A stretch of 64,000 nt of DNA, taken from NCBI GenBank assembly GCA_014382365.1, contig JACNJW010000040.1, positions 15,589 through 79,588 of the forward strand, written 5' to 3'. Under the pieces are notes generated by a model, which saw nothing but the letters and a program-made list of their open reading frames with translations, searched no databases and had not been told where the DNA came from. Positions 20,301 through 47,722 of the stretch are shown here, in pieces. The first letter of the stretch is position 1. Every line of letters starts with the position of its first letter. Origin of the DNA: SAR324 cluster bacterium. Lineage in GTDB: Bacteria > SAR324 > NAC60-12. The position numbers and the translations under genes are program-made.

Positions 20301-23300
20301 CGTAAGATTGGATGCAAGTGCGAAAGTTTGGGAAACATTTTCACCAAGTTCTAAAACACCACCGTTGAGAGAAATGTCGCCTATTGTTAAATTAACAGGA
20401 TCTTTCCACGCAAATTCTCCATTTGGATCAAGCTTCAGTCCGCCATTCAAGGCAACTGCAGAATTTTCATCCCAAATAATTCTCTCATTTGCATTGTCCA
20501 GCACAAGCTCATTTGCGACTGTAAACGAAGATACAGAATTTAGAGTCAGTATTTTATTTTCCAGACGCAATTCATTGACAGCAAACGTGGCATCACTGGT
20601 GAGACTGAGGTTACTCAGCAACTCTAAATCTGTGGCGCTGAGTGTTAAGGTACCTCCACTTTTAGTAAAATTATCTGCTACTGCCAGCGTACTGTCCTGT
20701 ATTACTAATGTTCCTCCATTGACAGCACCACCTTTTTCAAAAGTTATTTTGCCTCCACTTGAAGTCAAAGTTGTTCCGGATGTGAGATCTGCAATCCCTC
20801 CAGTGAAAGTCAGATCTGCCAGGTCCGTTGCCATTGTTCCTGCTGGAGTACCTGTGTTTGTTCCACTATTACTTGAAGCACTGAGGTCAAGTGTCAAATC
20901 TGTTGTTTCTGAGGCAAGTGTAAAAGTGAAACCTTCTAAATTCAACTCGCCTAAAATGAAACCCTGACTGCGATTCACTGTTGTATCTTCACCAAGTTTG
21001 AATGTTGTCTGGTTATTGGTCAGTACATTATCTAGAGTTACGTTGCCGCCAAGTTTCAGCGTGCCTCCGGAGAGATCAAGATTGGACCCGAGGTTCCAGC
21101 TTGTGGTACTGTTTGTTTTGAGGGTTCCGGAAACCGCATAGTCAGTTCCAATCTTCAATTCAGCACCCGCCGCATTGATTTCTCCAGCATTGGTTCCGCC
21201 CTGCTGAAATTCGAGCTTTCCCCCTGTGCCGGTAATGACACTTGCATCAATAGACGCTCCGGTTGAAATATCCGCCCTGCCAACAAAAACAAGATCGGCA
21301 CCCTGAGTGCTTAGTGTACCGGATGCAAGTGTAAAAGCATTTCCGAGTGTAAGGTCAGAGGTTACGGAGGCTAGTTTAAAATTAAAACCATTGGTATCTA
21401 AAGTTGCTGCTTCAACTGCCACCGTGCTTGCAAGCTCTGCATTGGCAGTCAGTGAAAGATTGGTATTTGTACTTGTCCAAGAATCCGCAACATTTAAATT
21501 TCCACCAAGTTGAATCGTTGTTCCGGAAGTGCTGAAAGTTGCTCCGCTGACTGCAGTAGCACCGCCGGGCAGACTTAAGGTTCCGCCTTCGATATTAATT
21601 ATTCCGGTAGTATCTGCGCTCAGACTTGAGGCAGAAAGAGTTCCGCCACTGGATGAAAGCGTTCCGGAGCTCACTGTAATTCCACCGTTGAGTGACAAAT
21701 CAGCCGCGCCGCTTATAATCTGTTCTGTGGCTGCGTCAAGTGTCACTGCCTGCGAAACACTCAGTCCCGCCATTGCGTCATCCAGCGTCAAGGCAAATTC
21801 TTCCAGTTCAAGTGTGCCGATTGACAAGGTGTCGCTGTCATTGAGCGTCGTATCTCCTGACAAACGAAGTATGCTTGTATTATCCGGAGTCACTCCGCTT
21901 AAATCCTGTGTACCCTCAATCTCCAGATTACTGCCTGATAATGTCAACGCGTTTGAGTTTGTAGTAAAAGTTGTGTTCTTGGTCTTCAGTGTTGAAGAGG
22001 AAATTGTCAACGGACTTTGCAGAACCAACGTTGACTCAGGAAGTGAGAGAGTTGAACCTTCAGCAAGACTGCCTCCGGAGTTGAGGGTGATTGTGCCTCC
22101 GCTTGAATTGAGTTTCGCAAGATTGCTCAAGTTCAACGCTCCGGCAAGTGACAAACTTCCTGCACCGGTTTCCAAAGTGATGCCGGACAAACTAAGCGTT
22201 GTATTAGCGTCAGTTAAGTTCAGCTGAGTTGTTGCTGAACCAAGAGTCAGTACCTGACCCTCCAAATTAACACTACCGAAAGAAACAGCATTACTCGATG
22301 AAAGCGTGGTTGCAGACTGCAGTTTCAGAATTGAAGTATTACTGCTGCTGAATGTTCCGGCGTTCAGATCAAGAGTCTGGCTGACACTCAAGGTACTGTC
22401 TGTTACATCAAGTATTCCTGCTTCGCCCAGAGTCAGTCCGCCTGCAAATGAAAGCGTTCCGCCTGTGGAAGTAATTGAGCCTGAATCAAGTTGCAAAGCG
22501 CTGGAAAGCGTCAGATTAGCAGATTTGGTTTCAATTGCTGAGCCGGTCGCAGTCATTGCCAGAGGGTTCGGCAGAGTCAGGCCTGCACTGTCTTCTGCAA
22601 GTGTAAGTTTGTTTCCACTTAATTCCAGTGTACCGAAACTCAGTGGGGTATTGCTCGTTACCTCTGTATCACCACTTAATTTAAAAGTTGTATTTGTGCC
22701 GGTTGTAAAATCATTTAAGTTGATTGAACCCCCGCTAGACTCAAGGGTTCCGGAACTAAGATCAAGCGTACCCTGCCAACCACTCCAGTTCGAACCGGAG
22801 TTTGCCGTTAAAGTTCCTGTTATGTTTAAGGCTCCTCCAAGTTTAAGCTCAGAGTCGCTCATGTCTAACTTACCGGTGGCTCCGACAGTTCCACCTTCGA
22901 TCAGATTCAAAATACCGCCGCCTTGTACAAATTCGCCGTTCAGAGTCAAACCATCCATTAGGCTGATATTACCTGTGCCGGATGCTAATTTGCCACCCTC
23001 AGCAATACTCAAACTATCATTGAATGACAGCTCACTCGATCCACTGTTGAACGTTTCATAGCTGCCGATATTCTGTGCACCGTCAATTGTCATAGAGGTC
23101 ACACTGCTGTCCAGTGTCAGTTCGTTGCCGTTCAAATCGAAATCTGGCCATGTTGCATTTCCACTATGAGAAAGAGTGGTGGCTCCTTCCAGCTTCACTG
23201 TGGAAGTTGAATCGTAATCAACAACACTGTTGTTGACCAGTGATAGCGATCCTGACATTTTGAAAGACGCATCAGGAAAAGACAAATTACTACTGTCAAA

Positions 23301-26300
23301 TGCTCCTCCATCTTCTAATATTAATCCGGCACTACCTACATCCAGTAAGCTACCGTTTTTGAATGTTGGAGATTTTTGAAATGTAAGATTTCCATTAGAG
23401 TAACCAAAATATGCAGCGTCAAATTGTGATGCTTTTGAAACCGTAAGGTTCATATCACTGATAGTTAAAAAGCCGCCGCTGGTTCCACCAGACTGCCAAA
23501 ATATTAATTCGCCAATTATACTTGTGCCGGAATCTGTACGTGAAATATCTGCTGAAGTGTTTATTTGAAGTGTTGTGTCTGCGTCCGTTGTGAAACCGTC
23601 CAAACTGTGAGTTCCAGCAAGTACAAGCTTTCCGCCTGAAAGATCAAGAGTATTGGCTGCCAGGCTGATATTTGCACCACTGTTTAAATTCAACATACCT
23701 GCAACGGAAAAATCTCCTATTAGATTAAATCCAGCTGAGTTTCCGACTTCAAGTTCTCCATTCGCTCCTACATTACCCCCGGAAAGCACCAATGTTCCGC
23801 CTTTGACTTCTATTTTACTTTGAGTTAAAGCCAGACTTCCAAATGAAACAATACTGGTTGAAATACCGTTTAGAACTAAATCGAAGCCTTTTGGATCAAA
23901 AGTATCAAAACCTACAGCAGAATCGAGTATGAGACTTACATCGCTCTGTAACTCTAAAGCTGTACCGCTTAGTGTTAAGGTACCTCCGCTTTTAGTAAAA
24001 TTATCTGCTACTGCCAGCGTACTGTCCTGTATTACTAATGTTCCTCCATTGACAGCACCACCTTTTTCAAAAGTTATTTTGCCTCCACTTGAAGTCAAAG
24101 TTGTTCCGGATGTGAGATCTGCAATCCCTCCAGTGAAAGTCAGATCTGCCAGGTCCGTTGCCATTGTTCCTGCTGGAGTACCTGTGTTTGTTCCACTATT
24201 ACTTGAAGCACTGAGGTCAAGTGTCAAATCTGTTGTTTCTGAGGCAAGTGTAAAAGTGAAACCTTCTAAATTCAACTCGCCTAAAATGAAACCCTGACTG
24301 CGATTCACTGTTGTATCTTCACCAAGTTTGAATGTTGTCTGGTTATTGGTCAGTACATTATCTAGAGTTACGTTGCCGCCAAGTTTCAGCGTGCCTCCGG
24401 AGAGATCAAGATTGGACCCGAGGTTCCAGCTTGTGGTACTGTTTGTTTTGAGGGTTCCGGAAACCGCATAGTCAGTTCCAATCTTCAATTCAGCACCCGC
24501 CGCATTGATTTCTCCAGCATTGGTTCCGCCCTGCTGAAATTCGAGCTTTCCCCCTGTGCCGGTAATGACACTTGCATCAATAGACGCTCCGGTTGAAATA
24601 TCCGCCCTGCCAACAAAAACAAGATCGGCACCCTGAGTGCTTAGTGTACCGGATGCAAGTGTAAAAGCATTTCCGAGTGTAAGGTCAGAGGTTACGGAGG
24701 CTAGTTTAAAATTAAAACCATTGGTATCTAAAGTTGCTGCTTCAACTGCCACCGTGCTTGCAAGCTCTGCATTGGCAGTCAGTGAAAGATTGGTATTTGT
24801 ACTTGTCCAAGAATCCGCAACATTTAAATTTCCACCAAGTTGAATCGTTGTTCCGGAAGTGCTGAAAGTTGCTCCGCTGACTGCAGTAGCACCGCCGGGC
24901 AGACTTAAGGTTCCGCCTTCGATATTAATTATTCCGGTAGTATCTGCGCTCAGACTTGAGGCAGAAAGAGTTCCGCCACTGGATGAAAGCGTTCCGGAGC
25001 TCACTGTAATTCCACCGTTGAGTGACAAATCAGCCGCGCCGCTTATAATCTGTTCTGTGGCTGCGTCAAGTGTCACTGCCTGCGAAACACTCAGTCCCGC
25101 CATTGCGTCATCCAGCGTCAAGGCAAATTCTTCCAGTTCAAGTGTGCCGATTGACAAGGTGTCGCTGTCATTGAGCGTCGTATCTCCTGACAAACGAAGT
25201 ATGCTTGTATTATCCGGAGTCACTCCGCTTAAATCCTGTGTACCCTCAATCTCCAGATTACTGCCTGATAATGTCAACGCGTTTGAGTTTGTAGTAAAAG
25301 TTGTGTTCTTGGTCTTCAGTGTTGAAGAGGAAATTGTCAACGGACTTTGCAGAACCAACGTTGACTCAGGAAGTGAGAGAGTTGAACCTTCAGCAAGACT
25401 GCCTCCGGAGTTGAGGGTGATTGTGCCTCCGCTTGAATTGAGTTTCGCAAGATTGCTCAAGTTCAACGCTCCGGCAAGTGACAAACTTCCTGCACCGGTT
25501 TCCAAAGTGATGCCGGACAAACTAAGCGTTGTATTAGCGTCAGTTAAGTTCAGCTGAGTTGTTGCTGAACCAAGAGTCAGTACCTGACCCTCCAAATTAA
25601 CACTACCGAAAGAAACAGCATTACTCGATGAAAGCGTGGTTGCAGACTGCAGTTTCAGAATTGAAGTATTACTGCTGCTGAATGTTCCGGCGTTCAGATC
25701 AAGAGTCTGGCTGACACTCAAGGTACTGTCTGTTACATCAAGTATTCCTGCTTCGCCCAGAGTCAGTCCGCCTGCAAATGAAAGCGTTCCGCCTGTGGAA
25801 GTAATTGAGCCTGAATCAAGTTGCAAAGCGCTGGAAAGCGTCAGATTAGCAGATTTGGTTTCAATTGCTGAGCCGGTCGCAGTCATTGCCAGAGGGTTCG
25901 GCAGAGTCAGGCCTGCACTGTCTTCTGCAAGTGTAAGTTTGTTTCCACTTAATTCCAGTGTACCGAAACTCAGTGGGGTATTGCTCGTTACCTCTGTATC
26001 ACCACTTAATTTAAAAGTTGTATTTGTGCCGGTTGTAAAATCATTTAAGTTGATTGAACCCCCGCTAGACTCAAGGGTTCCGGAACTAAGATCAAGCGTA
26101 CCCTGCCAACCACTCCAGTTCGAACCGGAGTTTGCCGTTAAAGTTCCTGTTATGTTTAAGGCTCCTCCAAGTTTAAGCTCAGAGTCGCTCATGTCTAACT
26201 TACCGGTGGCTCCGACAGTTCCACCTTCGATCAGATTCAGAATACCGCCGCCCTGCACAAGCTCTCCATTCAGCGTCAAGGCTCCACTCAGTTGAACTGA

Positions 26301-34985: not shown

Positions 34986-36557
34986 TTAGCCTTCATCAGG
35001 ATCCGGAAAAAATTTTCTGGTTCGTTCTTTTTTTACAGGCCTCGTAAATATTAGATCTACCCGCCGATTTGCTTTGCGTGCAGCTTTTAACTCTTTCCCG
35101 CTTTTCCGCTTACCATCCTCAGATAGATATGACTTTTTAGGTCTGGTTTCCGCATAGCCGGAAATTGCAATTCTTTCCGGATTAAAGCCGACTTTTTCCA
35201 TCATTAGTGTGGCGACTACAGTGGCCCGCACCGTACTCAGTTCCCAATTATTCCTGAATTTACTTTTTTTTCTGAGAGGGACATCATCCGTATGTCCATC
35301 CACCCTGATTGCATCTCCTTCCAATTCATAACGATCACGGATTTCACTCAGAAATTGCTGTAATTGCACTTCTACTTCCTGCACAATTGCTGCTCCTCCG
35401 CTGGGAAACAGGAAGCTGGACGGTAGAGAAAGGATACAACGTGATTTACTTGCATTGAGTTCGAAGGAGGCAAAATCTTCATTTTCACGTAAAAAACGAT
35501 TAATTCCACTACAGTCCTTCATTTCCTGTGCACCAATGATGGTATTGACTTGTTTTGAGATACGACCTGTTTCTGCATTTTTAATGGCGAGAGCATCCAT
35601 TTGAACAACCAATGTGCGCGTAGCATATAAAGGAACCTCGTCTTGCAAGACTTCCATTTCCACCGTACCTTTTTCAGTATAGGGATAGATCTTAATCGTA
35701 GCACCATCCATGAAACGAAAGTCTTTTTTCTCCTTGGCAGTTCCAGCAAATTTAATTGGAATTTCTGTTATTACACCACTGACTGGTGAAATTTTAGCAG
35801 TGATATTTGAGATACCTTTGTAAAGATCCCTGCGTGAAACTTCAAAGCTAACGCTGGGAAGCGGTTCATCATCCTGGATAAAAATGCTCCTACTGACAAA
35901 GTTTCCACGCTCCACATCTCCACGTAGTTTTCCGATTTGTACCAGAATTTCTTCCGAATCCTCATAAAGTTCATCGTTGATGATACATAATGGGAAAAAA
36001 GTTTCATATTCTCCCTGTGGAATAACTGCCACTTCTGATCCCAGAATATAATCAAACTCCTGAATTTCAGTCGGATTTGCAGTTAAACCTTCACTTGTGC
36101 AAAGCTCAGCATCAACCGGCCCTCTGCGTGCGCTGCCTGAAAAGAAAAGGGGAATCCTCAAATCTTCTTCTACTTTTTCATTGAGCAGGACCACTACTTT
36201 CAACACTCCTGCAGATTCATCAACCTGACCTTTGGCCATGCTTTCAATCAGAATCTGCGTTTTGTAGAGAGATGTCTGTTTTTTACCAATCAGTGTTTCC
36301 AGTTTTTCTTCAAAATTTTCTTTGTTATCAAAGAAAACTCCCATCATCGATCCTAAACTATTGACAGTATTATCCGGAAGACGGTTTTTCAAAGTATCAA
36401 TTGTTGCAGCATTGACTACAAATCCGGTTTTCAGATCTACTTGTGGTTTGTTAAACAACGACAAATACACAAAAAAACAAAACAGCAATGTAATCAAATC
36501 AGCGAATGTCAACATCCACCTTACTTCATTAGCCTTTTTTTTCTTTCCTCCAAGCAT
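34986..36557 (-). CDS. MotB-like stator protein with an OmpA-type peptidoglycan-binding C-terminal domain, 523 aa. This is about 200 aa longer than canonical MotB because of a long periplasmic linker.
   Basis: The N-terminal TM helix with the conserved MotB Asp reads VRWMLTFADLITLLFCFFVYL (compare MotB ...YADLMTLL...). The C-terminal OmpA/MotB motif is VDGHTDDVPL...NWELSTVRATVV. It is adjacent to the MotA-like gene with an 88-bp gap. Confidence 0.85.
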   Translation of the reverse strand: MLGGKKKKANEVRWMLTFADLITLLFCFFVYLSLFNKPQVDLKTGFVVNAATIDTLKNRLPDNTVNSLGSMMGVFFDNKENFEEKLETLIGKKQTSLYKTQILIESMAKGQVDESAGVLKVVVLLNEKVEEDLRIPLFFSGSARRGPVDAELCTSEGLTANPTEIQEFDYILGSEVAVIPQGEYETFFPLCIINDELYEDSEEILVQIGKLRGDVERGNFVSRSIFIQDDEPLPSVSFEVSRRDLYKGISNITAKISPVSGVITEIPIKFAGTAKEKKDFRFMDGATIKIYPYTEKGTVEMEVLQDEVPLYATRTLVVQMDALAIKNAETGRISKQVNTIIGAQEMKDCSGINRFLRENEDFASFELNASKSRCILSLPSSFLFPSGGAAIVQEVEVQLQQFLSEIRDRYELEGDAIRVDGHTDDVPLRKKSKFRNNWELSTVRATVVATLMMEKVGFNPERIAISGYAETRPKKSYLSEDGKRKSGKELKAARKANRRVDLIFTRPVKKERTRKFFPDPDEG

Positions 36558-36645
36558 CTTTTCTTCTTCAACGAGTCACGGTTTTCTATAAATTATTTAT
36601 GTCAACAGTTAGCAAATTATACTGAGTACCATAAACTTTAATACA

Positions 36646-37512
36646 TCACCCATACTGTTTATCAAATTCGTCCCGCTTGTGAGGGAGAAACATTCGTAGT
36701 TCCTGAAGAATTGTGTATGGTGCCTCACGACGTGCTATGCGATGCACACTTTCACGAATCATTTCCAGCAAAATTAGATTTGATTCTTTGAGTTGCTTCC
36801 GCTTCGAAGCTATCGGCAGTAAAATCATGTTTGAAAAAATTACTCCATAAAGTGTGGTCAACATGGCAATTGACATGGCCTGCATAACTGCACGAATACT
36901 TCCGGTTTCCGCCAGCATCAGTACCAGCCCAACAATCGTTCCAACCATACCAAATGCAGGAGCTGCGGTTGCCATAAAATCCATAATCTCAATTTCTTCA
37001 TCTGCACGCTGCTCATACATGGCCACCTCAGACTTTATGATCTGGTGCAGCGACTCTTCCTCTACTTGCTCTCTGACAATCAGCCCCTCTATCCAGCGTC
37101 GCATAAATGGATTTTGCAGATTGTTGAGATCATCGTTGGTGATTCGCTTTCCACTATAGCGTTTTTCTGCGATTAGCTTGGATTGATCATATATTTCCTG
37201 AGTTGCTTCTTCAGCAATATCTGAAGAAAACACTTTAGGGATGCTGCCAAAACTTCGTAAAGCCTTTCGGTAGGGAAAGGCAATGAAAGTTGCAGAAACA
37301 GTTCCGCCCAACACGATGAAGGTAGATTTCAGGTCAAAAAATCTTAAGATTTGAATTAAATATTTGTTATATGAATCCGCTTCTCCGGAACTCTCCAGCC
37401 AAAGTGCCAGATTAGAAAATTCTGCCGGCCACAGAATTCCAGAAAGAATAAAAATTGCTCCTGATAAAAAACCGAGTGATGTTCCTAATTTATCTGCACT
37501 TGTTTGTTTCAT
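36646..37512 (-). CDS. MotA/PomA-like proton-channel stator subunit (MotA/TolQ/ExbB superfamily; closest in pattern to flagellar MotA/PomA), 288 aa.
   Basis: There are four predicted TM helices. The TM3 signature MATAAPAFGMVGTIVGLVLML closely matches PomA/MotA ...AAPAMGMIGTLVGLV.... TM4 reads SIAMLTTLYGVIFSNMILLPI, and the MotA-like cytoplasmic tail is ...MIRESVHRIARREAPY.... Its stop overlaps the start of the upstream 543-aa gene by 4 nt (ATGA-type coupling). Confidence 0.85.
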   Translation of the reverse strand: MKQTSADKLGTSLGFLSGAIFILSGILWPAEFSNLALWLESSGEADSYNKYLIQILRFFDLKSTFIVLGGTVSATFIAFPYRKALRSFGSIPKVFSSDIAEEATQEIYDQSKLIAEKRYSGKRITNDDLNNLQNPFMRRWIEGLIVREQVEEESLHQIIKSEVAMYEQRADEEIEIMDFMATAAPAFGMVGTIVGLVLMLAETGSIRAVMQAMSIAMLTTLYGVIFSNMILLPIASKRKQLKESNLILLEMIRESVHRIARREAPYTILQELRMFLPHKRDEFDKQYG

Positions 37513-39140
37513 GAATCCTTTTTATTCCAAATTTTAGCCAGTTCCTGATGCACATGACGCATAAAAACGTTGCGGTGCAGATCTCGGAGTTGATTTATCC
37601 GCTCCTTATCTGCATCATCTTCTTCACGTTGTTTTTCAAAACCCTGCTGTTGTTCTTGATAATATTGCCGTGTTTCTTCTGTATATTCCTTCATAATTTT
37701 TTCAGTCACCGATGACTCAGCATCGAGTAACAGATAAGGTACTGAGACCCTGGCTCCAGTGCTTAACCGTGAACGCTCAAAACGTTCCATCACTCTGGCT
37801 ACAAGTGCTTCCTCAATCTCTGAACTGCTTTGCAGTTCATCAAAAGACAGACTTCGTTCGCGGATTTGAGACATGGAACTGTCTGCAGTTTTTGCCAGAT
37901 CTGGATTTTTCTTCTTCAGTTCTCCTGTACTGTCAAGTATCATGTTCCATTGTTCAGCACTCACCTGTCCTGAAAGTTCTCCAATTCGGCCTAGTCCGTC
38001 AAAAGAAACCGGTAATTTTTTTGCAGTTTCAGCTAATTCCTCCGCCAGCTTTTCCAGTTCACTTGGCGAAACACTGACATCTTTCATGGCCAGCACAGCC
38101 GCCAGTGCATCCTCTGCAGGAAACTCCTTGAGGATTACAGCCATTTCACCAGGATCCATTTGACTGAAAACTGCAGCCTGTTGAGCTGGTTTTATTTTCT
38201 GCAGCAGATTAACTCGAATTCCTGCAGGCATCCTGCGAACAAAACCGAAATAATCTATTTTGCCTTCATCATCATCTGCCCCATCTTCTTCATCAGGAAG
38301 ATCCAGTTCCTCTTCTTCCTCCTCTGTTTCCGGTGCCATGCTTTCAATAGCAGTTGCAACTTTTCCAAGTGTAGACTGTAAAGGATGTTCTTTTTCCTCT
38401 TTCTCACGAGTACTGCGGGAGACAAAAAAGAAGAGGGCAAGGGTCAACAACAACAGAACTCCAAGTGTGCCAATTATGGCCCATTGAGCAGGTGTAATTG
38501 CTTCAGTACCTTCAGGCACATATTCAGGAATTAACTGCTCCACTCCCAGCATTTCATAACCTGCTGGAAATTCTGCACTTATTGCTGCTGCCTGTTTCAG
38601 CATTTCCTGTGCTGCAACCGGTTCATCAAGATTTAAATTTGCACGTGCACCAACCAGTAAATTTACATATTCAACCAGTTTTGCAGAAAAATCCGGCCGC
38701 TCGATTTGTAGTTTTTCTATAACAACTGACTGTTCAAAACGGTCCTGAGATTTTAATTCAGTAATTTCTGAACGTATCCGCATTTCCACTTGATCTAAAT
38801 TTACTGCATCGTTGACCGTTAAAATTATACTGCGGTAATTGAAGACTACTTTCACGTCATTTTCACTAGTAATAATTTTCACTCCAGGAAGCAGATCACT
38901 GTCTTTTTTTACAGGTGTATTATCCAAAACTGAATGCATTACTACTGAAACGTCAATATATTTTTCAGCTAGAGTTTTACGCAGAATTTTATGAATCCGT
39001 TCACGCATCTCCGGTTCCGGCCGGCTGCGACTTAAAATTTCCGCCTGACAGTAACTAATACTGAGGAAAATGAAAACCAGGCTGCAGCTTATAATGCTTA
39101 GAATTTTTTTGTTCATAATGTGGTATGTGTTCATGGACAA
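37509..39140 (-). CDS. Bitopic inner-membrane protein with a cytoplasmic FliG/MgtE_N-like helical repeat, 543 aa. It has an N-terminal signal or TM1, a ~190-aa periplasmic domain and TM2 (WAIIGTLGVLLLLTLALFFFV) followed by positive charges. The cytoplasmic part starts with an acidic stretch (EEEEEELDLPDEEDGADDDEG). A FliG-like ARM-type segment follows: LQKIKPAQQAAVFSQMDPGEMAVILKEFPAEDALAAVLAMKDVSVSPSELEKLAEELAE. The C-terminus is coiled-coil and charged.
   Basis: ORF 37509..39140 (-); an alternative start at Met9 (39116) is possible. The FliG-like assignment comes from my pattern match to the FliG middle/C-domain repeat (...L..EHPQTIALvLSyLdP.kAAeVLs.LPeELradVayRIAtl.rVSPEvleEVE..LE...). It needs HHpred or structure prediction. 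The gene is translationally coupled to the MotA-like gene. Confidence 0.6.
   Translation of the reverse strand: MSMNTYHIMNKKILSIISCSLVFIFLSISYCQAEILSRSRPEPEMRERIHKILRKTLAEKYIDVSVVMHSVLDNTPVKKDSDLLPGVKIITSENDVKVVFNYRSIILTVNDAVNLDQVEMRIRSEITELKSQDRFEQSVVIEKLQIERPDFSAKLVEYVNLLVGARANLNLDEPVAAQEMLKQAAAISAEFPAGYEMLGVEQLIPEYVPEGTEAITPAQWAIIGTLGVLLLLTLALFFFVSRSTREKEEKEHPLQSTLGKVATAIESMAPETEEEEEELDLPDEEDGADDDEGKIDYFGFVRRMPAGIRVNLLQKIKPAQQAAVFSQMDPGEMAVILKEFPAEDALAAVLAMKDVSVSPSELEKLAEELAETAKKLPVSFDGLGRIGELSGQVSAEQWNMILDSTGELKKKNPDLAKTADSSMSQIRERSLSFDELQSSSEIEEALVARVMERFERSRLSTGARVSVPYLLLDAESSVTEKIMKEYTEETRQYYQEQQQGFEKQREEDDADKERINQLRDLHRNVFMRHVHQELAKIWNKKDS
37990..38250 (-). other. FliG/MgtE_N-like helical repeat segment within the 543-aa protein (approximate coordinates).
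   Basis: Residues about 300-380, with the motif IKPAQQAAVFSQMDPGEMAVILKEFPAEDALAAVLAMKDVSVSPSELEKLAEEL. Confidence 0.5.
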
Positions 39141-39485
39141 GCAATATTTTGGTGGTGAAAATATTTGTTTTCAGTATATTTTCAGCTAATTTAATCTCTC
39201 ATTAACCCTCTTTATTACGCTTTGACGGAAGATTTGTCAAGCATAATTACATGCCATTGTTAGTAAAATTTGTCAGGCAGATCAATTTTTTTACAGATTT
39301 TAATTATATCCCTTTCATCTGCCAACAATAATATTATTTTTTTATTTTCTGTTAGATATTCGTTGCAAATTAAAGACATCTCAGTTAGTCTTGGTCTTTA
39401 GTCATCTTGCATAATTTGCCAATCTGCGTAAAAGATTGTATTCCTCAAATAAAAAATGTCTGGAACAATCTTAAAAGGTACTCAC
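39141..39485. promoter_or_regulatory. AT-rich 345-bp divergent intergenic region. It lies between the minus-strand motor/adhesin array (starting at 39140) and the plus-strand pal-like/tolQ/tolR/lpxB/tldD array. Divergent promoters are likely. It contains a 9-bp direct repeat ATTTGTCAR (39232-39240 and 39268-39276).
   Basis: The position between divergently oriented first genes, the AT richness and a direct repeat seen by eye. No consensus sigma70 boxes were confidently identified. Confidence 0.3.
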
Positions 39486-40685
39486 ATGCTAAAATATTTT
39501 ACTATTTCGTTAGTTCTTTTGTCTCTCCTTTTTGCCGGATGCAGTTCAAAAAGTCCGGAACCTCAAGTAGTAGAAGAAGAACCTGTTGTTGAAGAAGAAA
39601 AAACTGCTGTTGTTGAAGAAGAAACTGCTGTTGAAATAAGTCCTGAGGAGGAAAACAAACTAGACTTAGAACATCAAATAAACATAGAAGAGCAGGAAAA
39701 ACTTCAGGAAGAAAAAATTACTGAACTACTGACCCAGGAAAGTGTTGCAGAAACAGAAGATTCTGCGCCTGCATCAACAGAAAGTTTGTTAGTGGCCGAA
39801 GCCGAGCAGGAAACTCAGGAAGTAATTCAACCTGAATTACAAAATGATGAATCCGACTCTTCCGCAGAGATTTTACCTGCAACAGAACCAAAATCACAGG
39901 AACCACCCGTAGAGGAAACTCAGACAGATGGAACTCCGGCAGAAGAAACTCAGACAGAGGAAGCTGTTCAGGAAATAATAGAGGAAACGGTGCAGGTTGT
40001 AGTAACGGAGGCAACCGAGGAAACTGTAGTCGAAGCCGCACAATCTCGAGCAGAGAAAGTGCAAACTCAGGAAACTCAGTCAGAAACAGTTGAAGATTCA
40101 GTAGCAGAAGAAACTAAAAAAACTACTCCGGATGTAGTCGCTATCATAGTATCACCACAGGTCGAACCAAAGCCTGATCTTTTTATTCCGGAAGCACCGT
40201 TGGCACTTTCCTCTGCCAATAGACTTGTATCCTGTAGCAAGGTACCGGAACTGATGGCAGCAATTCATCAACGCCTGCTTAAAACAAAAGAATTAGATAT
40301 TGCAGACAGGAGACTTCGTGACAAAACAAATGATCGACTGATGCCTGTCATACACTTTGATTTTGATAAAATAGTTATCAAAACTGACTATATAAAACTA
40401 TTACGCCAGCAAAGTTCCTGTGTGCTGAAAAATGTGGAGTCACGTGGTGACATGATTATTCAGATTGAAGGTCATGCAGATGAACGGGGTAGCGACGAAT
40501 ACAACATGGCTTTAGGACATCGCCGGGCTAACTCAGTTTCAAATGCGATTTTGGCCTATCTCACCGACTCTTCACTTGCACAAATCTTCAGTTTTGGTGA
40601 AGAATATCCGCTGGTTTCTGAATCCAACAAAAATGCCTGGGCCCAAAACAGGAGAGTGGAATTCACTTTATTGCTTAAACCATAA
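39486..40685 (+). CDS. OmpA-family / Pal-like peptidoglycan-associated lipoprotein, about 399 aa from Met11. The lipobox is LLFAGC. A ~200-aa acidic Glu/Gln/Thr-rich low-complexity region follows. The C-terminus is an OmpA/Pal domain (GHADERGSDEYNMALGHRRANSVSNAIL).
   Basis: The ORF track start is 39456. The signal peptide begins at the internal Met (MLKYFTISLVLLSLLFAGCSS), so 39486 is preferred. OmpA/Pal C-terminal motifs are present. Confidence 0.75.
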   Translation: MLKYFTISLVLLSLLFAGCSSKSPEPQVVEEEPVVEEEKTAVVEEETAVEISPEEENKLDLEHQINIEEQEKLQEEKITELLTQESVAETEDSAPASTESLLVAEAEQETQEVIQPELQNDESDSSAEILPATEPKSQEPPVEETQTDGTPAEETQTEEAVQEIIEETVQVVVTEATEETVVEAAQSRAEKVQTQETQSETVEDSVAEETKKTTPDVVAIIVSPQVEPKPDLFIPEAPLALSSANRLVSCSKVPELMAAIHQRLLKTKELDIADRRLRDKTNDRLMPVIHFDFDKIVIKTDYIKLLRQQSSCVLKNVESRGDMIIQIEGHADERGSDEYNMALGHRRANSVSNAILAYLTDSSLAQIFSFGEEYPLVSESNKNAWAQNRRVEFTLLLKP

Positions 40686-40693
40686 ATACATAA

Positions 40694-41374
40694 ATGGATT
40701 TTTTATCTCTCCCGTTTACTACTGATTTCAGTAGTATTGCCTTTAGTGTTCTTGCAGTGCTTTTTGCCTGTTCTGTGATTGTCTGGATCACGTTGTTCAT
40801 GAAGTTTTTCAGCCTTATCCGGGCAAAGTTTCTTCAGTCACGTGCCCTAAAACTACTGGAAAACACAAAACGTGTTGATGAACTACGCTTGCGGTTCGCA
40901 AAGATGCCCAATAATCCGCTCCAGGAAATGTTCACACTTGGAGATCGGGAACTTAAGAGGTTCCTTAAATCAAATCCTGCATCAGATTATGGCCACCGCC
41001 GGGAATTAATGGACCGACTGGAAAGGATGCTGGAAGCTCGAATTTTGCTGGCAGAGAAAGATCTAAATGCCGGCCAGGCTCTGCTGGCAACCATCGCTGT
41101 CACATCTCCGTTTATTGGTTTATTTGGCACTGTGATTGGTGTAATTAACACTTTCATGAGTATTTCTGAGTTCAATTCAGTTGATCTGTCTGTGATCAGT
41201 CCAGGCATTGCTGAGGCGCTTGTAGCTACTGCGGCCGGTTTGTTTGCGGCAATTCCTGCTACTTTAGGCTACAACCTCTTTCGTGCAACGATCCGGGGAA
41301 TGACTGAGACAATGGATTATTTTGCACTGCAACTTCTGCATCACCTTCAACAGCATTTGCTGCCAAAAAAATGA
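40694..41374 (+). CDS. TolQ/ExbB-family proton channel (MotA/TolQ/ExbB family), 226 aa.
   Basis: It has three TM helices with the signature TIAVTSPFIGLFGTVIGVINTF. It is adjacent to an ExbD/TolR-like gene and a Pal-like gene. Confidence 0.85.
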   Translation: MDFLSLPFTTDFSSIAFSVLAVLFACSVIVWITLFMKFFSLIRAKFLQSRALKLLENTKRVDELRLRFAKMPNNPLQEMFTLGDRELKRFLKSNPASDYGHRRELMDRLERMLEARILLAEKDLNAGQALLATIAVTSPFIGLFGTVIGVINTFMSISEFNSVDLSVISPGIAEALVATAAGLFAAIPATLGYNLFRATIRGMTETMDYFALQLLHHLQQHLLPKK

Positions 41375-41793
41375 GAAAATTTCGACATGCCCGGCGACTC
41401 CGTGGGGAACTGATGTCTGAAATCAACATCACTCCCTTTGTAGATGTCTTATTGGTACTTCTGGTGGCCTTTTTGATTTCTGCACCTTTATTGACTCTTG
41501 CACTGCCTGTTCAGTTACCTAAAGGAAATATAAAAGAACGTCTTCCTGCTTACGAAAAATCAATCCTGGCAGTCGTCAACAACCAACAGCAAATTCTAAT
41601 TCTAGACAAGATTTATTCACTTAAAAGCCTTTCATTATCATTGACTGATGATGTTAATTTGTGGCAGAGTAAACTACCAATCTATGTGGAAATGGATAAA
41701 AATGTTCCTTACGGAACTCTAATGGAACTAATGCTGCTTTTTAAGAATGCCGGCTTTCCGCAAGTAGGACTTGTATTCAAAAAAGACTCCTGA
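41371..41793 (+). CDS. TolR/ExbD-family biopolymer transport protein, 140 aa.
   Basis: The N-terminal motif MSEINITPFVDVLLVLLVAFLI is typical of ExbD/TolR. It overlaps tolQ-like by 4 nt. Confidence 0.8.
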   Translation: MRKFRHARRLRGELMSEINITPFVDVLLVLLVAFLISAPLLTLALPVQLPKGNIKERLPAYEKSILAVVNNQQQILILDKIYSLKSLSLSLTDDVNLWQSKLPIYVEMDKNVPYGTLMELMLLFKNAGFPQVGLVFKKDS

Positions 41794-41837
41794 TTCAACA
41801 CCTGCCATAGTCTAAAACCACCTTCCTGAAATACTCG

Positions 41838-42971
41838 ATGAAACTTATGATGGTTGCCGGAGAAGCATCCGGAGATGCTCATGGAGCAGGTCTGATTAGT
41901 AGTTTGAGACAAAATCTAAAGTCTGCAGAGATATTTGGTATCGGCGGTGAAAAAATGCTGAGAGCTGGTTTCCGTCCATATTACCTGCTGGATTCTTTGC
42001 AGACACATGGTTTAGTCGAGGTAATACGGCATCTTCCACGTCTCTACCGGATTCTCTGGAGGATGCGGGACGCCTTGTTAGAAGAACGCCCGGATGCACT
42101 AATCCTGATTGATTATCCGGGTTTTAATCTCAAATTGGCTGCTTATGCTAAAGCTGCAGGAATTCCGGTAATATTTTTCAACAGTCCACAAATTTGGGCC
42201 TGGCGTAAAGGCAGATTAGCAACCATCAAACGTGTGGTTGATAAGATGATTGTACTCTTTCCCTTCGAAGAAATAATTTATCAACAGGCTGGAGTAGATG
42301 TCAGTTGGGTTAGTCACCCTCTATTGGATGAAATTCAGGAAAATACAGACTCCAATGCATTTCTAAAACGAAACGGACTGCAGGAAGATCTTCCGCTGCT
42401 GTTGCTTGCCCCAGGCAGCCGACCAAGCGAAATGAGAAGGCACCTGCCAGTTATGCTTGAGTCGCTACCGGAAATTCAGAAAATAACGGGAAATATCCAG
42501 TGCATTCTGCCTGTTGCTGAGTCACTCAATTTACAGCTGGTAAAACAGGCAGTTCAATCATCAATGGTTCCAGTAACTCTCGTTACAGAACATTTTGTTG
42601 AAGCATTGCAGGCTTGTGATGCAGCAATTGTTGCTTCTGGAACTGCTTCACTGCAAACTGGACTTGCACTCAAACCGTTCGTAATAGTTTATCGGGTTTC
42701 AGCACTAACATACTGGCTTGCACGTAGACTGGCGGATACTAAATATATTGGTCTGGTTAATGTGCTGGCCGAAAAAGAAATCGTTCCAGAATTACTGCAA
42801 AATGATTTTAACGTCAGTAAGATAACAACTGCAACTGTTCGCCTCTTGCAGGATGAAGACTATCGTGAAACAATGATCAGCCAACTGCAAACAACACGCA
42901 GCAAGCTTGGTGAGCCTGGAGCCTATAACAAGGCTGCAGACTGTATTGAATCCTTTCTAGCTGCAGACTGA
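41838..42971 (+). CDS. lpxB: Lipid-A-disaccharide synthase (LpxB), 377 aa.
   Basis: The N-terminus MKLMMVAGEASGDAHGAGLI matches the LpxB consensus (...VAGETSGDxLGAxLI...). The length is typical. Confidence 0.88.
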   Translation: MKLMMVAGEASGDAHGAGLISSLRQNLKSAEIFGIGGEKMLRAGFRPYYLLDSLQTHGLVEVIRHLPRLYRILWRMRDALLEERPDALILIDYPGFNLKLAAYAKAAGIPVIFFNSPQIWAWRKGRLATIKRVVDKMIVLFPFEEIIYQQAGVDVSWVSHPLLDEIQENTDSNAFLKRNGLQEDLPLLLLAPGSRPSEMRRHLPVMLESLPEIQKITGNIQCILPVAESLNLQLVKQAVQSSMVPVTLVTEHFVEALQACDAAIVASGTASLQTGLALKPFVIVYRVSALTYWLARRLADTKYIGLVNVLAEKEIVPELLQNDFNVSKITTATVRLLQDEDYRETMISQLQTTRSKLGEPGAYNKAADCIESFLAAD

Positions 42972-44607: not shown

Positions 44608-46179
44608 TTATAACTGCTGTTGTTCTTCAGACAAATTGGATATTTCACAACTCAGTATTGCAAGTTCCAGACAGTCAAGCATGTGTTCATCCAAAAGCGG
44701 CTGGTAGTTCACAGTGTCTTTGGCAACTGCAGTTTTAACTTTAGCCAACATTTCATTTTTTTTAACAAACTGATCTAACTGTTCTGCTAAATGAGTGGTT
44801 TGTGCTGTGATTTTATTTAACCGCCCGGATGCTTTGATCCATTCTTTTGCAAAATTAGCCATTTCTGTCAGCTTGGTAAAACTGTGGCGTTCATCAGTTT
44901 CCACGTGATCACCCCAAAACTCGCCCATTCCCAGAGAAACTGCTTTGTCTCCCATCCGCTCCAAAAATGACTGCTTGCTTTTAAATATCTCAAACAGGTC
45001 AAAAGTAATGATTTTTTCCTCATCTCCGGCCTTTACCGGTCTCTTCAGTTCTTTGAGCCGCAACTCATGACGCTTGATATCCTTTATTATTCTCTTTCTT
45101 GAATTATTCAGCTGTTGATATTCATCTTCATCCTCTAAGTGTGACTTTTCTATGATGCTGATGGAGTGAATTACCTCTTTTAATTTCTCTTTAACATTTT
45201 TAATGCTTTCCTCTTCAGCCTCAATTTTAACTGCAAGCTGATCTTCCTGTTTAACCTTTCGTTCCTCCTGTTTGCTGATAATTGTTTTTTTACGCAGGGC
45301 AACTCTGACTGGAAAAGTGTCTTTAGTAAATTTCCAGGAATTAAAAAAAACAATATCCACTTTTTCAAAATCTGCTGAATTAAAGACATAATCTGCAATA
45401 TTTGCCTTTGACAATTCGTCTTCAGCATGATCATTCCTGAATTTTTCAATCTTGTTTGCCAGTTCATTGGAAGGCATAAAAGAAAGAAATTTTCGGCTGA
45501 AATCTATTTTCACCAGCCCATCCTGTGTACGCTGACCAAGATCATCTATAATCATCACATTGATCAAACCTTTCATCAGACCGTCTAAAATTGCAACTCC
45601 AGTAATCTTCTCAATTGCAGTACTGAGAATGTAACCGATACCCTGATAGTATGGCTTTTCTACTTCAGTAATTTCTTGTTCCAGCTTGCTAACCAGTTCC
45701 TGAAATTGTAGTAGTATTTTTTGTTTGTTGCGCAAAACAGCATCAGTCACTGCCAACTTGAAGAATTTCGGGTCTTTTTCACGTTCTTCACAAATCTGCA
45801 GAATTTCCTTGTAACGACTTGTCAGCTTTGTCAATTGTTCCGTGTCACTTGAAGCTGTTTTTTCCTGCAATAGATCTGGGCTACCTGGCACACGGAATAC
45901 CTGTTTGACACTGTCTGCATCCGGAGTTATTCCCAGTGGGAGATCTCCGGGAAAACTTAAAATCCATTTGTATTTTTTCTGCTTTTCTTCCGGATAATTC
46001 GTTTCATCAATTGCAACCGTGACATCCGTTTTTAGTAAACGATCTACTAAAGTTTTCATGTAACTTTTACGTAAATCTTTACTGAGAAGCAATAATATCA
46101 GTTTGTTTTTTTCCGCTTCACCTGCCTGGAGATCTGTGTCTTGAACCTGATCAACCATATTTGCCTCATTCGTCGTCAA
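44608..46179 (-). CDS. Hypothetical cytoplasmic protein, 523 aa, charged and coiled-coil rich, with no recognisable motif. It overlaps the upstream gene by 14 nt.
   Basis: ORF 44608..46179 (-). It is convergent with tldD and co-operonic with 46166..47722. Confidence 0.55.
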   Translation of the reverse strand: MTTNEANMVDQVQDTDLQAGEAEKNKLILLLLSKDLRKSYMKTLVDRLLKTDVTVAIDETNYPEEKQKKYKWILSFPGDLPLGITPDADSVKQVFRVPGSPDLLQEKTASSDTEQLTKLTSRYKEILQICEEREKDPKFFKLAVTDAVLRNKQKILLQFQELVSKLEQEITEVEKPYYQGIGYILSTAIEKITGVAILDGLMKGLINVMIIDDLGQRTQDGLVKIDFSRKFLSFMPSNELANKIEKFRNDHAEDELSKANIADYVFNSADFEKVDIVFFNSWKFTKDTFPVRVALRKKTIISKQEERKVKQEDQLAVKIEAEEESIKNVKEKLKEVIHSISIIEKSHLEDEDEYQQLNNSRKRIIKDIKRHELRLKELKRPVKAGDEEKIITFDLFEIFKSKQSFLERMGDKAVSLGMGEFWGDHVETDERHSFTKLTEMANFAKEWIKASGRLNKITAQTTHLAEQLDQFVKKNEMLAKVKTAVAKDTVNYQPLLDEHMLDCLELAILSCEISNLSEEQQQL

Positions 46180-47722
46180 GATGAAAACGAGTTAATTTTT
46201 CTTTTGTTAAAATTTCCCGGTCATCAAATGTTGCCTTTAGCTTTGCTGAGCCTACTTTCAGTTCTTTATATTCTTCTGTGCCTTCTTCAAGCTTATTTTC
46301 AGGATCATAATTGTCCATAAATTTCATGTATTGTGCAGCAGACTGTAATTCATTAAGATATATTTTAATCTGAAATAATAACAAGCATACATGAATCATC
46401 TCAGGTCCCTTTAATCTTTCAAAAATAGGTTCCAGTTTCTCAACCACCTTTTTCAGGTTTGCTTCTGCTGCCTCTCTGTCCTTGTTTTCCATCAAGAGTT
46501 CCGCCTGTGTCATCAACATCGATGCTTCTTTACGAAGTGCCATACCCTTTTGCTGATCATCTGAAACAATACTGGACATCTGTTCAAAAGTTGCAATTGC
46601 CAGATCATAAGCCAGGATTCCCTGCTTGGTGTTTCGTTCTTCAGAATAGAATTCTTCGCCTGCCGCCTGAGATTTTTTGAGCAGAGGTGCAATTTTTTCT
46701 TCCCAACCTGTTGAAAACTTGGTTACATCAAAAACTGCTTTATCTGTTTTCAAACGTTTAAAATGTTCTTTATGGTTACTGGAGAAGCCGCATTTTGCAC
46801 AAGAGGCAACTTGAATGAGATTATAATCACAAAAATCCAATTTTCCTGCCGATCTGATATATGCAGGAATTCCAAAAATATTTGGTTCAGTAATCATACT
46901 TTTTGAATGCAGTTCAAAAAAAGCAACTTCGGGATTATCACAGACATAACAACGTAAGTTACTACCCAAAAGTGAGTTCTTCTTGGTTTTGATAAACCCT
47001 CCATCAGAAAATTTAGCAAATTTTTCTGGATGCATTATCTGCATTATCCCATGTTCTTCTGCTATTTTTTGTACAAAAACTGCTCGCACCAGATAGCAAC
47101 TTTCTTCAAATTTCAACTGACGTTGTTTAAACATTTTACAGGAGATAACATCCCAGTATTTTTCTTCTTCTTCGCTACCTTGATTTTCCGGAATTTCTTT
47201 ACGTACCTTGAGCATGATACTAACTTTTGGCATCAGTGCTTTTCCCAGCCGAAATGTGAAACCGTCTCCATCTACTTTAGTTAATCTGACTTTTGCAGTT
47301 ATTTTTCCTGTTTCTATTATTCCTAGTGGCAAATCCCTATCCAGCATTGCACGGGCACTCTTCCAGAGCTTTGTCAATATTTCGTTATTAAAACCTAAAT
47401 AGCGTCCGGCTAAGAGAAAATAAGCAATTTCTTTTGAATGCAGATGAGAATCTGCAACCATTAACTGTGCCAGAAATTTCAGCATCAGAAACGCCTGCTT
47501 GGGTTCGATTTCCAGAAGGCTCATCTCGGGTGATTTACCCTCCTTGATAATATCCATAATTGCCTGTATATCATCTTTATTTTCTAAAAAATTAATTGCC
47601 TCCCGCAAAAAGTTCATTTCCTGCTGGTCTGCACGTCCATCGGCAACAACCATTCCTGCAATTGATTTGGCAAACCAAATCTTTTCTGCCGCTGACATCG
47701 CTTCTACATCTGGTAACTGCAT
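46166..47722 (-). CDS. Hypothetical protein, 518 aa. It has an N-terminal TerB-like domain (...SIAGMVVADGRADQQEMNFLREAINFLE...KFLAQLMVADSHLHSKEIAYF...). A central Cys-pair zinc-ribbon-like segment follows (CYVCDNPE...CAKCGFSS), then a C-terminal helical region.
   Basis: ORF 46166..47722 (-). The TerB-like repeat (ADG..D..E...L) and the two CxxC motifs were seen in the translation. Confidence 0.55.
   Translation of the reverse strand: MQLPDVEAMSAAEKIWFAKSIAGMVVADGRADQQEMNFLREAINFLENKDDIQAIMDIIKEGKSPEMSLLEIEPKQAFLMLKFLAQLMVADSHLHSKEIAYFLLAGRYLGFNNEILTKLWKSARAMLDRDLPLGIIETGKITAKVRLTKVDGDGFTFRLGKALMPKVSIMLKVRKEIPENQGSEEEEKYWDVISCKMFKQRQLKFEESCYLVRAVFVQKIAEEHGIMQIMHPEKFAKFSDGGFIKTKKNSLLGSNLRCYVCDNPEVAFFELHSKSMITEPNIFGIPAYIRSAGKLDFCDYNLIQVASCAKCGFSSNHKEHFKRLKTDKAVFDVTKFSTGWEEKIAPLLKKSQAAGEEFYSEERNTKQGILAYDLAIATFEQMSSIVSDDQQKGMALRKEASMLMTQAELLMENKDREAAEANLKKVVEKLEPIFERLKGPEMIHVCLLLFQIKIYLNELQSAAQYMKFMDNYDPENKLEEGTEEYKELKVGSAKLKATFDDREILTKEKLTRFHLDDE

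Follow-up and report, generated by a model that had tools for sequence, protein, structure and literature searches.

A 64-kb stretch of DNA from a SAR324 cluster bacterium (the window, on which all positions given below are numbered) carries on its minus strand, from 39140 down to 218, a row of genes that opens with an unusual trio: an integral membrane protein of 543 amino acids (aa) whose cytoplasmic half is homologous to the rotor protein FliG, followed by a MotA-type and a MotB-type stator subunit. The trio looks co-transcribed, and it is conserved along with genes for two outer-membrane barrels, for a FecR-domain protein and a lipoprotein, and for a giant surface protein. We tentatively favour the view, which could easily be wrong, that these genes encode a stand-alone stator-rotor module that was derived from the flagellar motor and is re-used outside the flagellum. 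Taken singly, the parts are all of known kinds (a 5:2 stator, FliG domains and, perhaps, a ring-building motif (RBM)), and the combination was not found in the literature. A first-pass annotation of the window had described the three minus-strand open reading frames (ORFs) and several motifs within them, namely AAPAFGMVGTIVGLV (MotA residues 183-197), FADLITLL in MotB and, in the 543-aa protein, an acidic patch (residues 273-293) and an ‘IKPAQQ...AEEL’ segment (residues 316-369), all of which are present, the ORFs at the coordinates given (Table 1). The present analysis adds to that description the homology to the C-terminal region of FliG, an insert of about 300 aa in MotB and six further genes of the operon.

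MotA matches the Pfam family MotA_ExbB (E = 3e-18) and, among the NCBIfam models, it is much closer to MotP (5e-37), PomA (8e-34) and MotA (4e-29) than to ExbB (0.003) or TolQ (0.009), in line with the earlier proposal that its TM3 signature is nearer to flagellar MotA/PomA than to TolQ/ExbB. Its nearest solved relatives are Aquifex MotA (8gqy, 1.2e-23) and Vibrio PomA (7e-22), with residues 55-277 aligned, and the long cytoplasmic domain between the second and third transmembrane (TM) helices is retained, as in the A subunits of flagellar stators. In MotB, the plug and TM helix with its Asp (Asp20) and the C-terminal OmpA domain, both of which had been recognised before, are recovered by Pfam (MotB_plug 2e-10, OmpA 8e-13), and the nearest PDB matches are MotB/PomB (2.6e-16). 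The periplasmic insert that separates these two parts matches Calx-beta in 7 of 8 family members (best E = 8.9e-8) and is not seen in the characterised flagellar MotB/PomB chains that were matched. Both subunits score below every curated equivalog threshold of NCBIfam (at best, 127 bits against 394 for MotA and 103 against 259 for MotB). Judged by these matches, MotA and MotB are 5:2 stator subunits of the PomAB/MotAB type. Zorya (ZorAB) was also considered and ruled out, as PADLOC gives only ZorA matches at E~1e-3, there are no other Zor proteins, and the 288-aa MotA is devoid of a tail.

When the 543-aa protein is searched as a lone sequence, Pfam yields sub-threshold matches only, to MgtE_N (3.7e-4; 21.4 bits against a cut-off of 25.9) and to FliG_M (3.5e-3; 18.0 against 25), and phmmer finds nothing relevant among PDB sequences. 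Both Pfam matches recur in all 15 homologues tested, 11 of which also give FliG_N-type matches. With a profile of the family, the sole significant matches in the PDB are the middle and C-terminal parts of Thermotoga maritima FliG (E = 8.8e-5 and 7.6e-4). Additionally, the cytoplasmic region of the family was aligned by hhalign with a reference profile of 10 genuine FliGs (that of E. coli and nine from plasmid or chromid records), giving a probability of 97.4% (E = 1.5e-11) and placing residues 296-501 on E. coli FliG 105-293, a span that runs from ARM_M through the M-C helix, ARM_C and the MFxF hinge (here RSLSFDEL) to the C-terminal bundle, up to and including the torque helix. Structure prediction by AlphaFold2 (AF2) was too poor with 15 close homologues (predicted local distance difference test score, pLDDT, of 48) and reached 66 with an alignment of 69 sequences that included a clade of about 46% identity and the distant relative TL4 (see below); in the latter model, the FliG_M part has a pLDDT of 75-84, and a Foldseek search of the PDB returned FliG chains at each of ranks 1 to 12. 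The N-terminal domain of MgtE, the best single Pfam match, has the same FliG-type armadillo-like helical fold, but MgtE as the better assignment is ruled out by the hhalign and fold matches to FliG, and there are no CBS or MgtE matches in Pfam. Taken from profiles and predicted fold, the cytoplasmic half of the 543-aa protein is thus a true homologue of FliG that has both its middle and its torque-generating C-terminal domains. The resemblance noticed by eye in the first-pass annotation was therefore correct, profile and fold searches leading to FliG itself rather than to some unrelated helical fold, and the homology extends further than had been claimed.

The features by which FliG is docked in a flagellum are absent from this protein. 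The alignment begins at residue 105 of E. coli FliG, so that the FliF-binding FliG_N is missing and its place is taken by a signal peptide or TM helix, a periplasmic domain and a second TM helix, and the EHPQR motif, by which FliM is bound, has not been preserved (KIKPAQQA stands at the aligned positions, which vary within the family). In comparison with a flagellar motor, the trio shares a four-TM A subunit with full cytoplasmic domain, a B subunit with plug, Asp and OmpA-like domain and, in the 543-aa protein, the FliG_M and FliG_C folds, an MFxF-like hinge and a charged equivalent of the torque helix. By contrast, the FliG domains here are joined to a TM helix and a periplasmic domain, the Calx-beta insert is present in MotB, the torque charges are partly rewired, no FliM, FliN, FliF or export genes lie nearby, and the scores are well below the curated cut-offs of NCBIfam and Pfam.

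The model of the periplasmic domain has a confident core (pLDDT ~87), ordered alpha, beta, beta, alpha, beta, with a helical hairpin after it. The alpha-beta-beta-alpha-beta order is the topology of the RBM of FliF, SctJ and SpoIIIAG, and Foldseek relates the domain to EscJ (probability 1.0, E = 0.12) and, weakly, to the FliF/PrgK folds; a profile of the domain has 0 matches in the PDB at E<=10. According to this model, it is plausible that the periplasmic domain would build a FliF-like ring. A precedent for such an arrangement is the FliF-FliG protein of Chlamydiaceae, a single polypeptide with signal or TM helix, short RBM-type periplasmic region, TM helix and cytoplasmic FliG that is likewise found outside the context of a complete flagellum (bioRxiv 10.1101/023564). 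Nevertheless, the chlamydial fusion has a recognisable FliF part, only the middle domain of FliG, a length of ~330 aa and no pairing with MotAB, whereas the 543-aa protein has both FliG_M and FliG_C, no detectable similarity to FliF and an adjacent, translationally coupled stator.

The segments expected to meet at a stator-rotor interface are strongly conserved. In the hhalign alignment, K264, R281, D288, D289 and R297 of E. coli FliG map to L472, E489, E496, Q497 and R505, of which E496 (the D288 position) and R505 (the R297 position) are invariant in the family. The torque segment, EYTE(E/D)TR.(Y/F)YQEQ...KQR, is nearly invariant between SAR324 clades that are ~46% identical overall, and its net charge is -5 to -9. 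On the stator side, the alignment with Aquifex MotA places R118 on the conserved Arg and N126/D127/D128 at the Glu position (the mapping derives from the Aquifex MotA and PomA alignments, as hhalign to E. coli MotA covered the C-terminal half only), and the loop in question, EKR(Y/F)(S/N)GKR(I/L)TN(D/E)DL, is net basic, invariant in all SAR324 loci and absent in TL4. Both the torque-helix segment and the MotA loop differ in the distant TL4 pair, a pattern that is compatible, across the two lineages compared, with a retuned electrostatic interface.

The FliG-like family is narrow, with ~325 clusters at 90% identity, almost all of them from SAR324 and including hundreds of intact metagenomic copies; an exhaustive phmmer search of 1.84 billion representatives returned 41 clusters only, mostly fragments, and no canonical FliG. 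Scanning one genome per GTDB species yielded 17 loci, which all lie in SAR324 or ‘Lambdaproteobacteria’-type metagenome-assembled genomes (MAGs), with intact ORFs, 46-94% identity and conserved order. MotA lies directly downstream of the FliG-like gene in 15 of the 16 SAR324-lineage loci that reach past it, MotB comes next wherever the contig continues and, in the longer loci, the barrel, the FecR protein, the lipoprotein and the start of the giant gene follow, down to 46% identity. In locus L012 (9890-13457), from a SAR324-related MAG, unrelated genes, for an ABC permease fragment and a nucleoside phosphorylase, come after the FliG-like gene (51% identity); either a rearrangement or chimerism of the MAG contig may account for this.

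The sole distant relative, at 24% identity, is a singleton, P0144 of Deltaproteobacteria bacterium TL4 (GCA_051382335.1). In this genome the FliG-like gene is followed by MotA (44% identity) and then by a MotB with plug, Calx-beta and OmpA (35%), and the trio is preceded by homologues of both the giant and the 692-aa barrel protein (the barrel being 29% identical over ~600 aa). Identities for the trio and these homologues are in the range of 23-44%. Synteny within SAR324 together with the TL4 homologues indicates that the trio's link to a giant surface protein and to outer-membrane barrels is ancient and conserved. The first-pass annotation had reported no other flagellar gene in the window, and we find none there or in the 10 kb beyond either end (~84 kb). 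The trio also occurs outside flagellar loci elsewhere: in 17 related species and the one distant lineage its neighbours are outer-membrane and giant surface proteins, and never flagellar genes. As regards TL4 itself, the order of its locus (L018, 1-19668) differs, reading giant homologue, 819 aa, barrel homologue, 346 aa, 401 aa, FliG-like protein, MotA, MotB and 1713 aa; the FliG-like protein has 658 aa, with an insert of ~70 residues in the FliG_M region, and the 1713-aa protein carries repeats shared with the 692-aa barrel protein.

If the trio works as a stator-rotor module, ion flow through MotA5B2 would turn the MotA pentamer, with MotB probably anchored to peptidoglycan by its OmpA domain at the end of the long Calx-beta arm, and the basic cytoplasmic loop of MotA (EKRYSGKRITNDDL) would push the acidic torque-helix equivalent of the FliG-like domain. 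As this domain is part of an integral membrane protein, its motion would be carried directly across the inner membrane, conveyed by the TM helix to the periplasmic domain. The FliG-like protein would most plausibly form a homo-oligomeric ring, that is, a one-polypeptide analogue of FliF plus FliG, a linear track being less likely. In such a protein FliG_N, which serves to bind FliF, would be unnecessary because of the covalent membrane tether; in fact, FliG_N is dispensable in FliF-FliG fusions, both in functional Salmonella fusions and in the natural chlamydial FliF-FliG(M) (bioRxiv 10.1101/023564). From the periplasmic domain, motion would then be passed on to partners in the periplasm and outer membrane by which the giant surface protein is held or moved, resulting in movement, tensioning or display of the adhesin.

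This logic would be analogous to that of the GldLM/SprB or Agl-Glt gliding machines. In GldLM/T9SS-SprB (T9SS, type 9 secretion system) and AglRQS-Glt-CglB, an inner-membrane ion-driven motor, periplasmic and outer-membrane components and a very large adhesin are also combined, and motion is passed across the envelope. Unlike the present system, however, they belong to the non-flagellar (GIT/ExbBD-like) branch and transmit force through the B subunit or TonB-like periplasmic proteins, not through a cytoplasmic FliG domain; no Pfam or NCBIfam match to Gld or Glt families was found at the SAR324 locus. The fuller proposal, namely, that SAR324 and at least one distant deltaproteobacterial lineage possess an unrecognised rotary machine in which a single-polypeptide FliF/FliG rotor and a PomAB-like stator are coupled, by way of periplasmic and outer-membrane partners, to a ~1-MDa surface protein, is more doubtful than the proposal of a re-used module, and we put it forward as a conjecture.

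Several observations weigh against the favoured reading. KH-like and OsmC-like folds match the periplasmic domain as well as the FliF/SctJ folds do, and at the sequence level it has no Pfam match to FliF/SctJ and an hhalign probability of only 0.1% to E. coli FliF. The FliG C-terminal part of the AF2 model is only moderately confident (pLDDT 55-70), and just two of the five torque-helix charges are kept in kind, R281 being reversed to Glu and K264 replaced by Leu. In locus L012, the FliG-like gene has no adjacent MotAB. It is gene order that suggests the link between the stator-rotor trio and the giant protein, and the contact of MotA with FliG_C, ring formation and rotation are all events that we infer. 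Finally, a flagellum may coexist with the motor operon in some or all of its carriers.

The main rival explanation, unlikely though we judge it, is non-rotary. In this case MotAB would energise or gate the secretion, retention or conformation of the giant protein through the MotB arm, as in SiiAB, TolQR-TolA or ExbBD-TonB, and the FliG-like protein would be a docking, brake or activation partner comparable to YcgR, MotI or FlgX. A precedent exists in Salmonella SPI-4, where the MotAB-like proton channel SiiAB is encoded with, and controls, SiiE, a giant adhesin of non-fimbrial type (bioRxiv 10.1101/641415; 10.1101/2021.05.14.443827); moreover, the unusual ~300-aa insert of MotB is kept family-wide, the canonical charge pattern of the torque helix is only partly preserved, and the ring is hypothetical. 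However, SiiAB is partnered by a type 1 secretion system and lacks any FliG-like component, whereas no type 1 secretion genes (ABC, MFP or TolC) are present in the SAR324 operon, in which the giant protein has an N-terminal Sec signal and the outer-membrane components are beta-barrels. In addition, this MotA is of the flagellar type, with a full-length cytoplasmic domain, rather than of the ExbB/TolQ type, and FliG_M and FliG_C folds with a torque-helix segment under strong purifying selection exceed what a simple docking peptide would need.

It is rather improbable, in our opinion, that the trio serves a true flagellum encoded elsewhere, as an extra stator set with a specialised FliG paralogue of the kind known from bacteria with several stators or two FliGs. 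The flagellar character of MotA and MotB would fit, the protein goes by the name of ‘flagellar motor switch protein FliG’ in public pipelines, one survey states that flagellar motility genes occur in all its SAR324 genomes (PMC9031357), and SAR324 flagellin peptides have been found in a metaproteome (bioRxiv 10.1101/310524). Other surveys give a different picture: in the SMAR bins, one of which is the source of our locus L005, there are only scattered ‘flagellar motor proteins’ (PMC4782131), and in another set a single SAR324 genome alone has MCP and flagellar genes (bioRxiv 10.1101/2024.01.20.576437). In any case, an integral membrane protein without FliG_N and EHPQR could have no normal place in the C-ring, and synteny in every lineage examined is with outer-membrane and giant surface proteins. 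It is thus from protein architecture and synteny that we infer a non-flagellar role. More improbable still is that the protein forms the fused MS-ring/C-ring base of a reduced flagellar-type or type 3 secretion (T3SS)-like apparatus whose remaining genes are scattered, as has been proposed for the chlamydial FliF-FliG. The topology shared with that fusion, the scattered flagellar-related genes of the SAR324 bins (PMC4782131) and the weak fold matches to FliF, PrgK and EscJ speak for it, but export-gate, ATPase and rod genes are absent from the window and from 10 kb to its left and right, the periplasmic domain does not resemble FliF in sequence, its protein is conserved together with MotAB and outer-membrane barrels, and the neighbouring giant protein has a Sec signal and is hence not a T3SS substrate. 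A last possibility is that the trio is decaying and functionless, left over from a flagellar system since lost; many non-motile species do indeed have genes for a rotor or stator but none for a filament (PMC12199754). Nevertheless, the ORFs are intact and in conserved order in 17 species-level genomes, hundreds of intact metagenomic copies exist, and the architecture, with its TM fusion and Calx-beta insert, is new and not a degraded one, so that conservation contradicts this explanation, which we regard as effectively refuted.

The genes of the row and the domains of the trio are collected in Table 1. The operon probably comprises nine genes or more, and a sigma-70-like promoter was matched (by consensus only) at 39325-39297, in the divergent intergenic region upstream. 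The product of the first ORF is 100% identical to an NCBI protein of 541 aa (P0001) entered there under SAR324 cluster bacterium, and its homologues point to the ATG at 39134 as the true start, so that the protein probably has 541 aa.

Table 1. Genes of the minus-strand row and parts of the stator-rotor trio, with positions in the window
Feature	Position	Strand	Remarks
Membrane-anchored FliG-like protein gene, 543 aa	37509..39140	-	First of the row
Signal peptide or first TM helix, residues 11-33	39042..39110	-	Hydrophobic after MNKK, ending ...CQA/E; helix in model
Periplasmic domain, residues 35-215 (~180 aa)	38496..39038	-	Predicted alpha-beta-beta-alpha-beta core, helical hairpin; conserved GYEMLGV(E/D)QLIPEY motif
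TM helix, residues 217-241	38418..38492	-	Followed by SRSTREK (positive-inside); from sequence, helix in model
Disordered acidic cytoplasmic linker, residues 242-294	38259..38417	-	Includes EEEEEELDLPDEEDGADDDEG; pLDDT 30-38
FliG middle-domain (ARM_M) homologue, residues 296-375	38016..38255	-	
FliG C-terminal-region homologue, residues 376-543	37512..38015	-	ARM_C; hinge RSLSFDEL (MFxF position); torque-helix equivalent EYTEETRQYYQEQQQGFEKQR (485-505)
MotA/PomA-type stator A subunit, 288 aa	36646..37512	-	Start overlaps FliG-like stop by 4 nt (ATGA)
MotA cytoplasmic-loop motif EKRYSGKRITNDDL, residues 116-129	37126..37167	-	Position of rotor-contacting Arg/Glu of PomA/MotA
MotB/PomB-type stator B subunit, 523 aa	34986..36557	-	88-nt gap after MotA
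MotB plug and TM helix with Asp20	36450-36539	-	FADLITLL = residues 18-25
MotB Calx-beta-containing periplasmic insert, ~300 aa	35523-36440	-	Between TM helix and OmpA domain
MotB OmpA-like peptidoglycan-binding domain	35106-35411	-	Pfam
Putative outer-membrane beta-barrel, 416 aa	33727..34977	-	8 nt after MotB
FecR-domain (LipL45-like) protein, 341 aa	32714..33739	-	As called (TTG start 33739), overlaps barrel gene by 13 nt
Putative lipoprotein of unknown fold, 560 aa	30926..32608	-	105-nt gap
Giant secreted/surface protein, 9479 aa	2301..30740	-	185-nt gap; Sec signal, LamG, beta-helix-like repeats, PKD
Outer-membrane protein, 692 aa	218..2296	-	4 nt after giant gene; N-terminal repeats and C-terminal beta-barrel
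154-aa gene	Runs off left window edge		Cut by edge; 6 nt after 692-aa gene

Downstream of the trio, the 416-aa putative barrel has a signal peptide, a C-terminus reading ...YIWMF and a weak match to Pfam Porin_4 (1e-4), and it is syntenic in 14 loci. The 341-aa protein, also syntenic, matches Pfam FecR (1.2e-8) and, weakly, the NCBIfam models Lsa33/LipL45. The 560-aa putative lipoprotein has a signal with Cys (...LAVSC) and no match to any Pfam or NCBIfam family, and it is syntenic down to 32% identity. The giant protein matches Laminin_G_3 (2.7e-24) and PKD (9e-12), and its N-terminus is syntenic in the SAR324 loci. The translation of the 692-aa protein ends in ...LLGFGIFF, and an exact 692-aa product is called on 18 contigs; it contains several N-terminal repeats with a recurring H-Y-x-x-Y-W-G motif.

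The giant ORF has further peculiarities. It contains a near-identical internal tandem duplication of ~3.3 kb (e.g., 20600-20899 and 23930-24229 are 96% identical at a spacing of 3330 nt), and a homologue on another contig is called at a different length (6106+ aa), which could be real variation in repeat number or an assembly effect. By eye only, its N-terminal repeats are possibly Calx-beta-like. Within the last ~150 aa (~2304-2750, minus strand), a TM-plus-Arg stretch, TMLLLVVLLLTSVSLMVYRR, resembles a C-terminal sorting signal; in frame behind it come a lipoprotein-like signal (LITLVVAC) and a small domain, itself a repeat of the preceding one. This end may represent an in-frame fusion of two genes or an unusual way of anchoring the C-terminus.

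On the other strand, upstream of the row, an unusual Tol-Pal layout is found at 39456-42971, where a 409-aa Pal-like lipoprotein with a long, acidic, low-complexity N-terminal half is followed by TolQ, TolR and LpxB, with no TolA or TolB in between. The true TolQ/TolR of the cell are encoded there (40694-41793). The divergent Pal-TolQR-LpxB genes are common only to the closer SAR324 clade, so that their adjacency to the motor operon is incidental. Farther away, at 44608-47722 (minus strand), two adjacent large proteins (523 and 518 aa) with a weak DUF2225 match only are kept in related contigs.

FliG is regarded as a flagellum-specific rotor protein. Flagellar-type (FIT) stators, for their part, are described as forming one clade that is bound up with flagella (PMC12505986). 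The operon described here is conserved and pairs such a stator with a membrane-embedded FliG that lacks every flagellum-docking feature. The first-pass annotation had held that no system of this kind was known, and this claim stands: our literature search found no description of such a trio, or of FliG_MC fused to a periplasmic domain together with a flagellar-type Calx-beta-arm stator and a giant surface protein operon, but partial precedents, SiiAB/SiiE and the chlamydial FliF-FliG, had been overlooked.

If the favoured reading is correct, the stator-FliG torque interface would have been exported to another machine; under the fuller proposal of an unrecognised rotary machine, that machine would be without precedent as a FliG-based motor outside the flagellum. 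The 543-aa protein would then be a natural minimal rotor, with the functions of FliF and FliG in one chain, of use for torque studies, and it would inform the question of how simpler parts came together in the flagellar motor. It is also a concrete candidate for the ‘rotor proteins without a filament’ that have been raised as an open question (PMC12199754), and it may explain the puzzle of SAR324 bins with flagellar motor genes only (PMC4782131). The label ‘flagellar motor switch protein FliG’ is misleading in this context and will inflate motility predictions for the SAR324 genomes that carry the gene. These bacteria rank among the most abundant groups of the ocean and are abundant throughout its deep waters, where the trio, on the fuller proposal, would possibly provide a new form of surface motility or active handling of an adhesin, and a motor-driven giant adhesin could matter for their attachment to particles.

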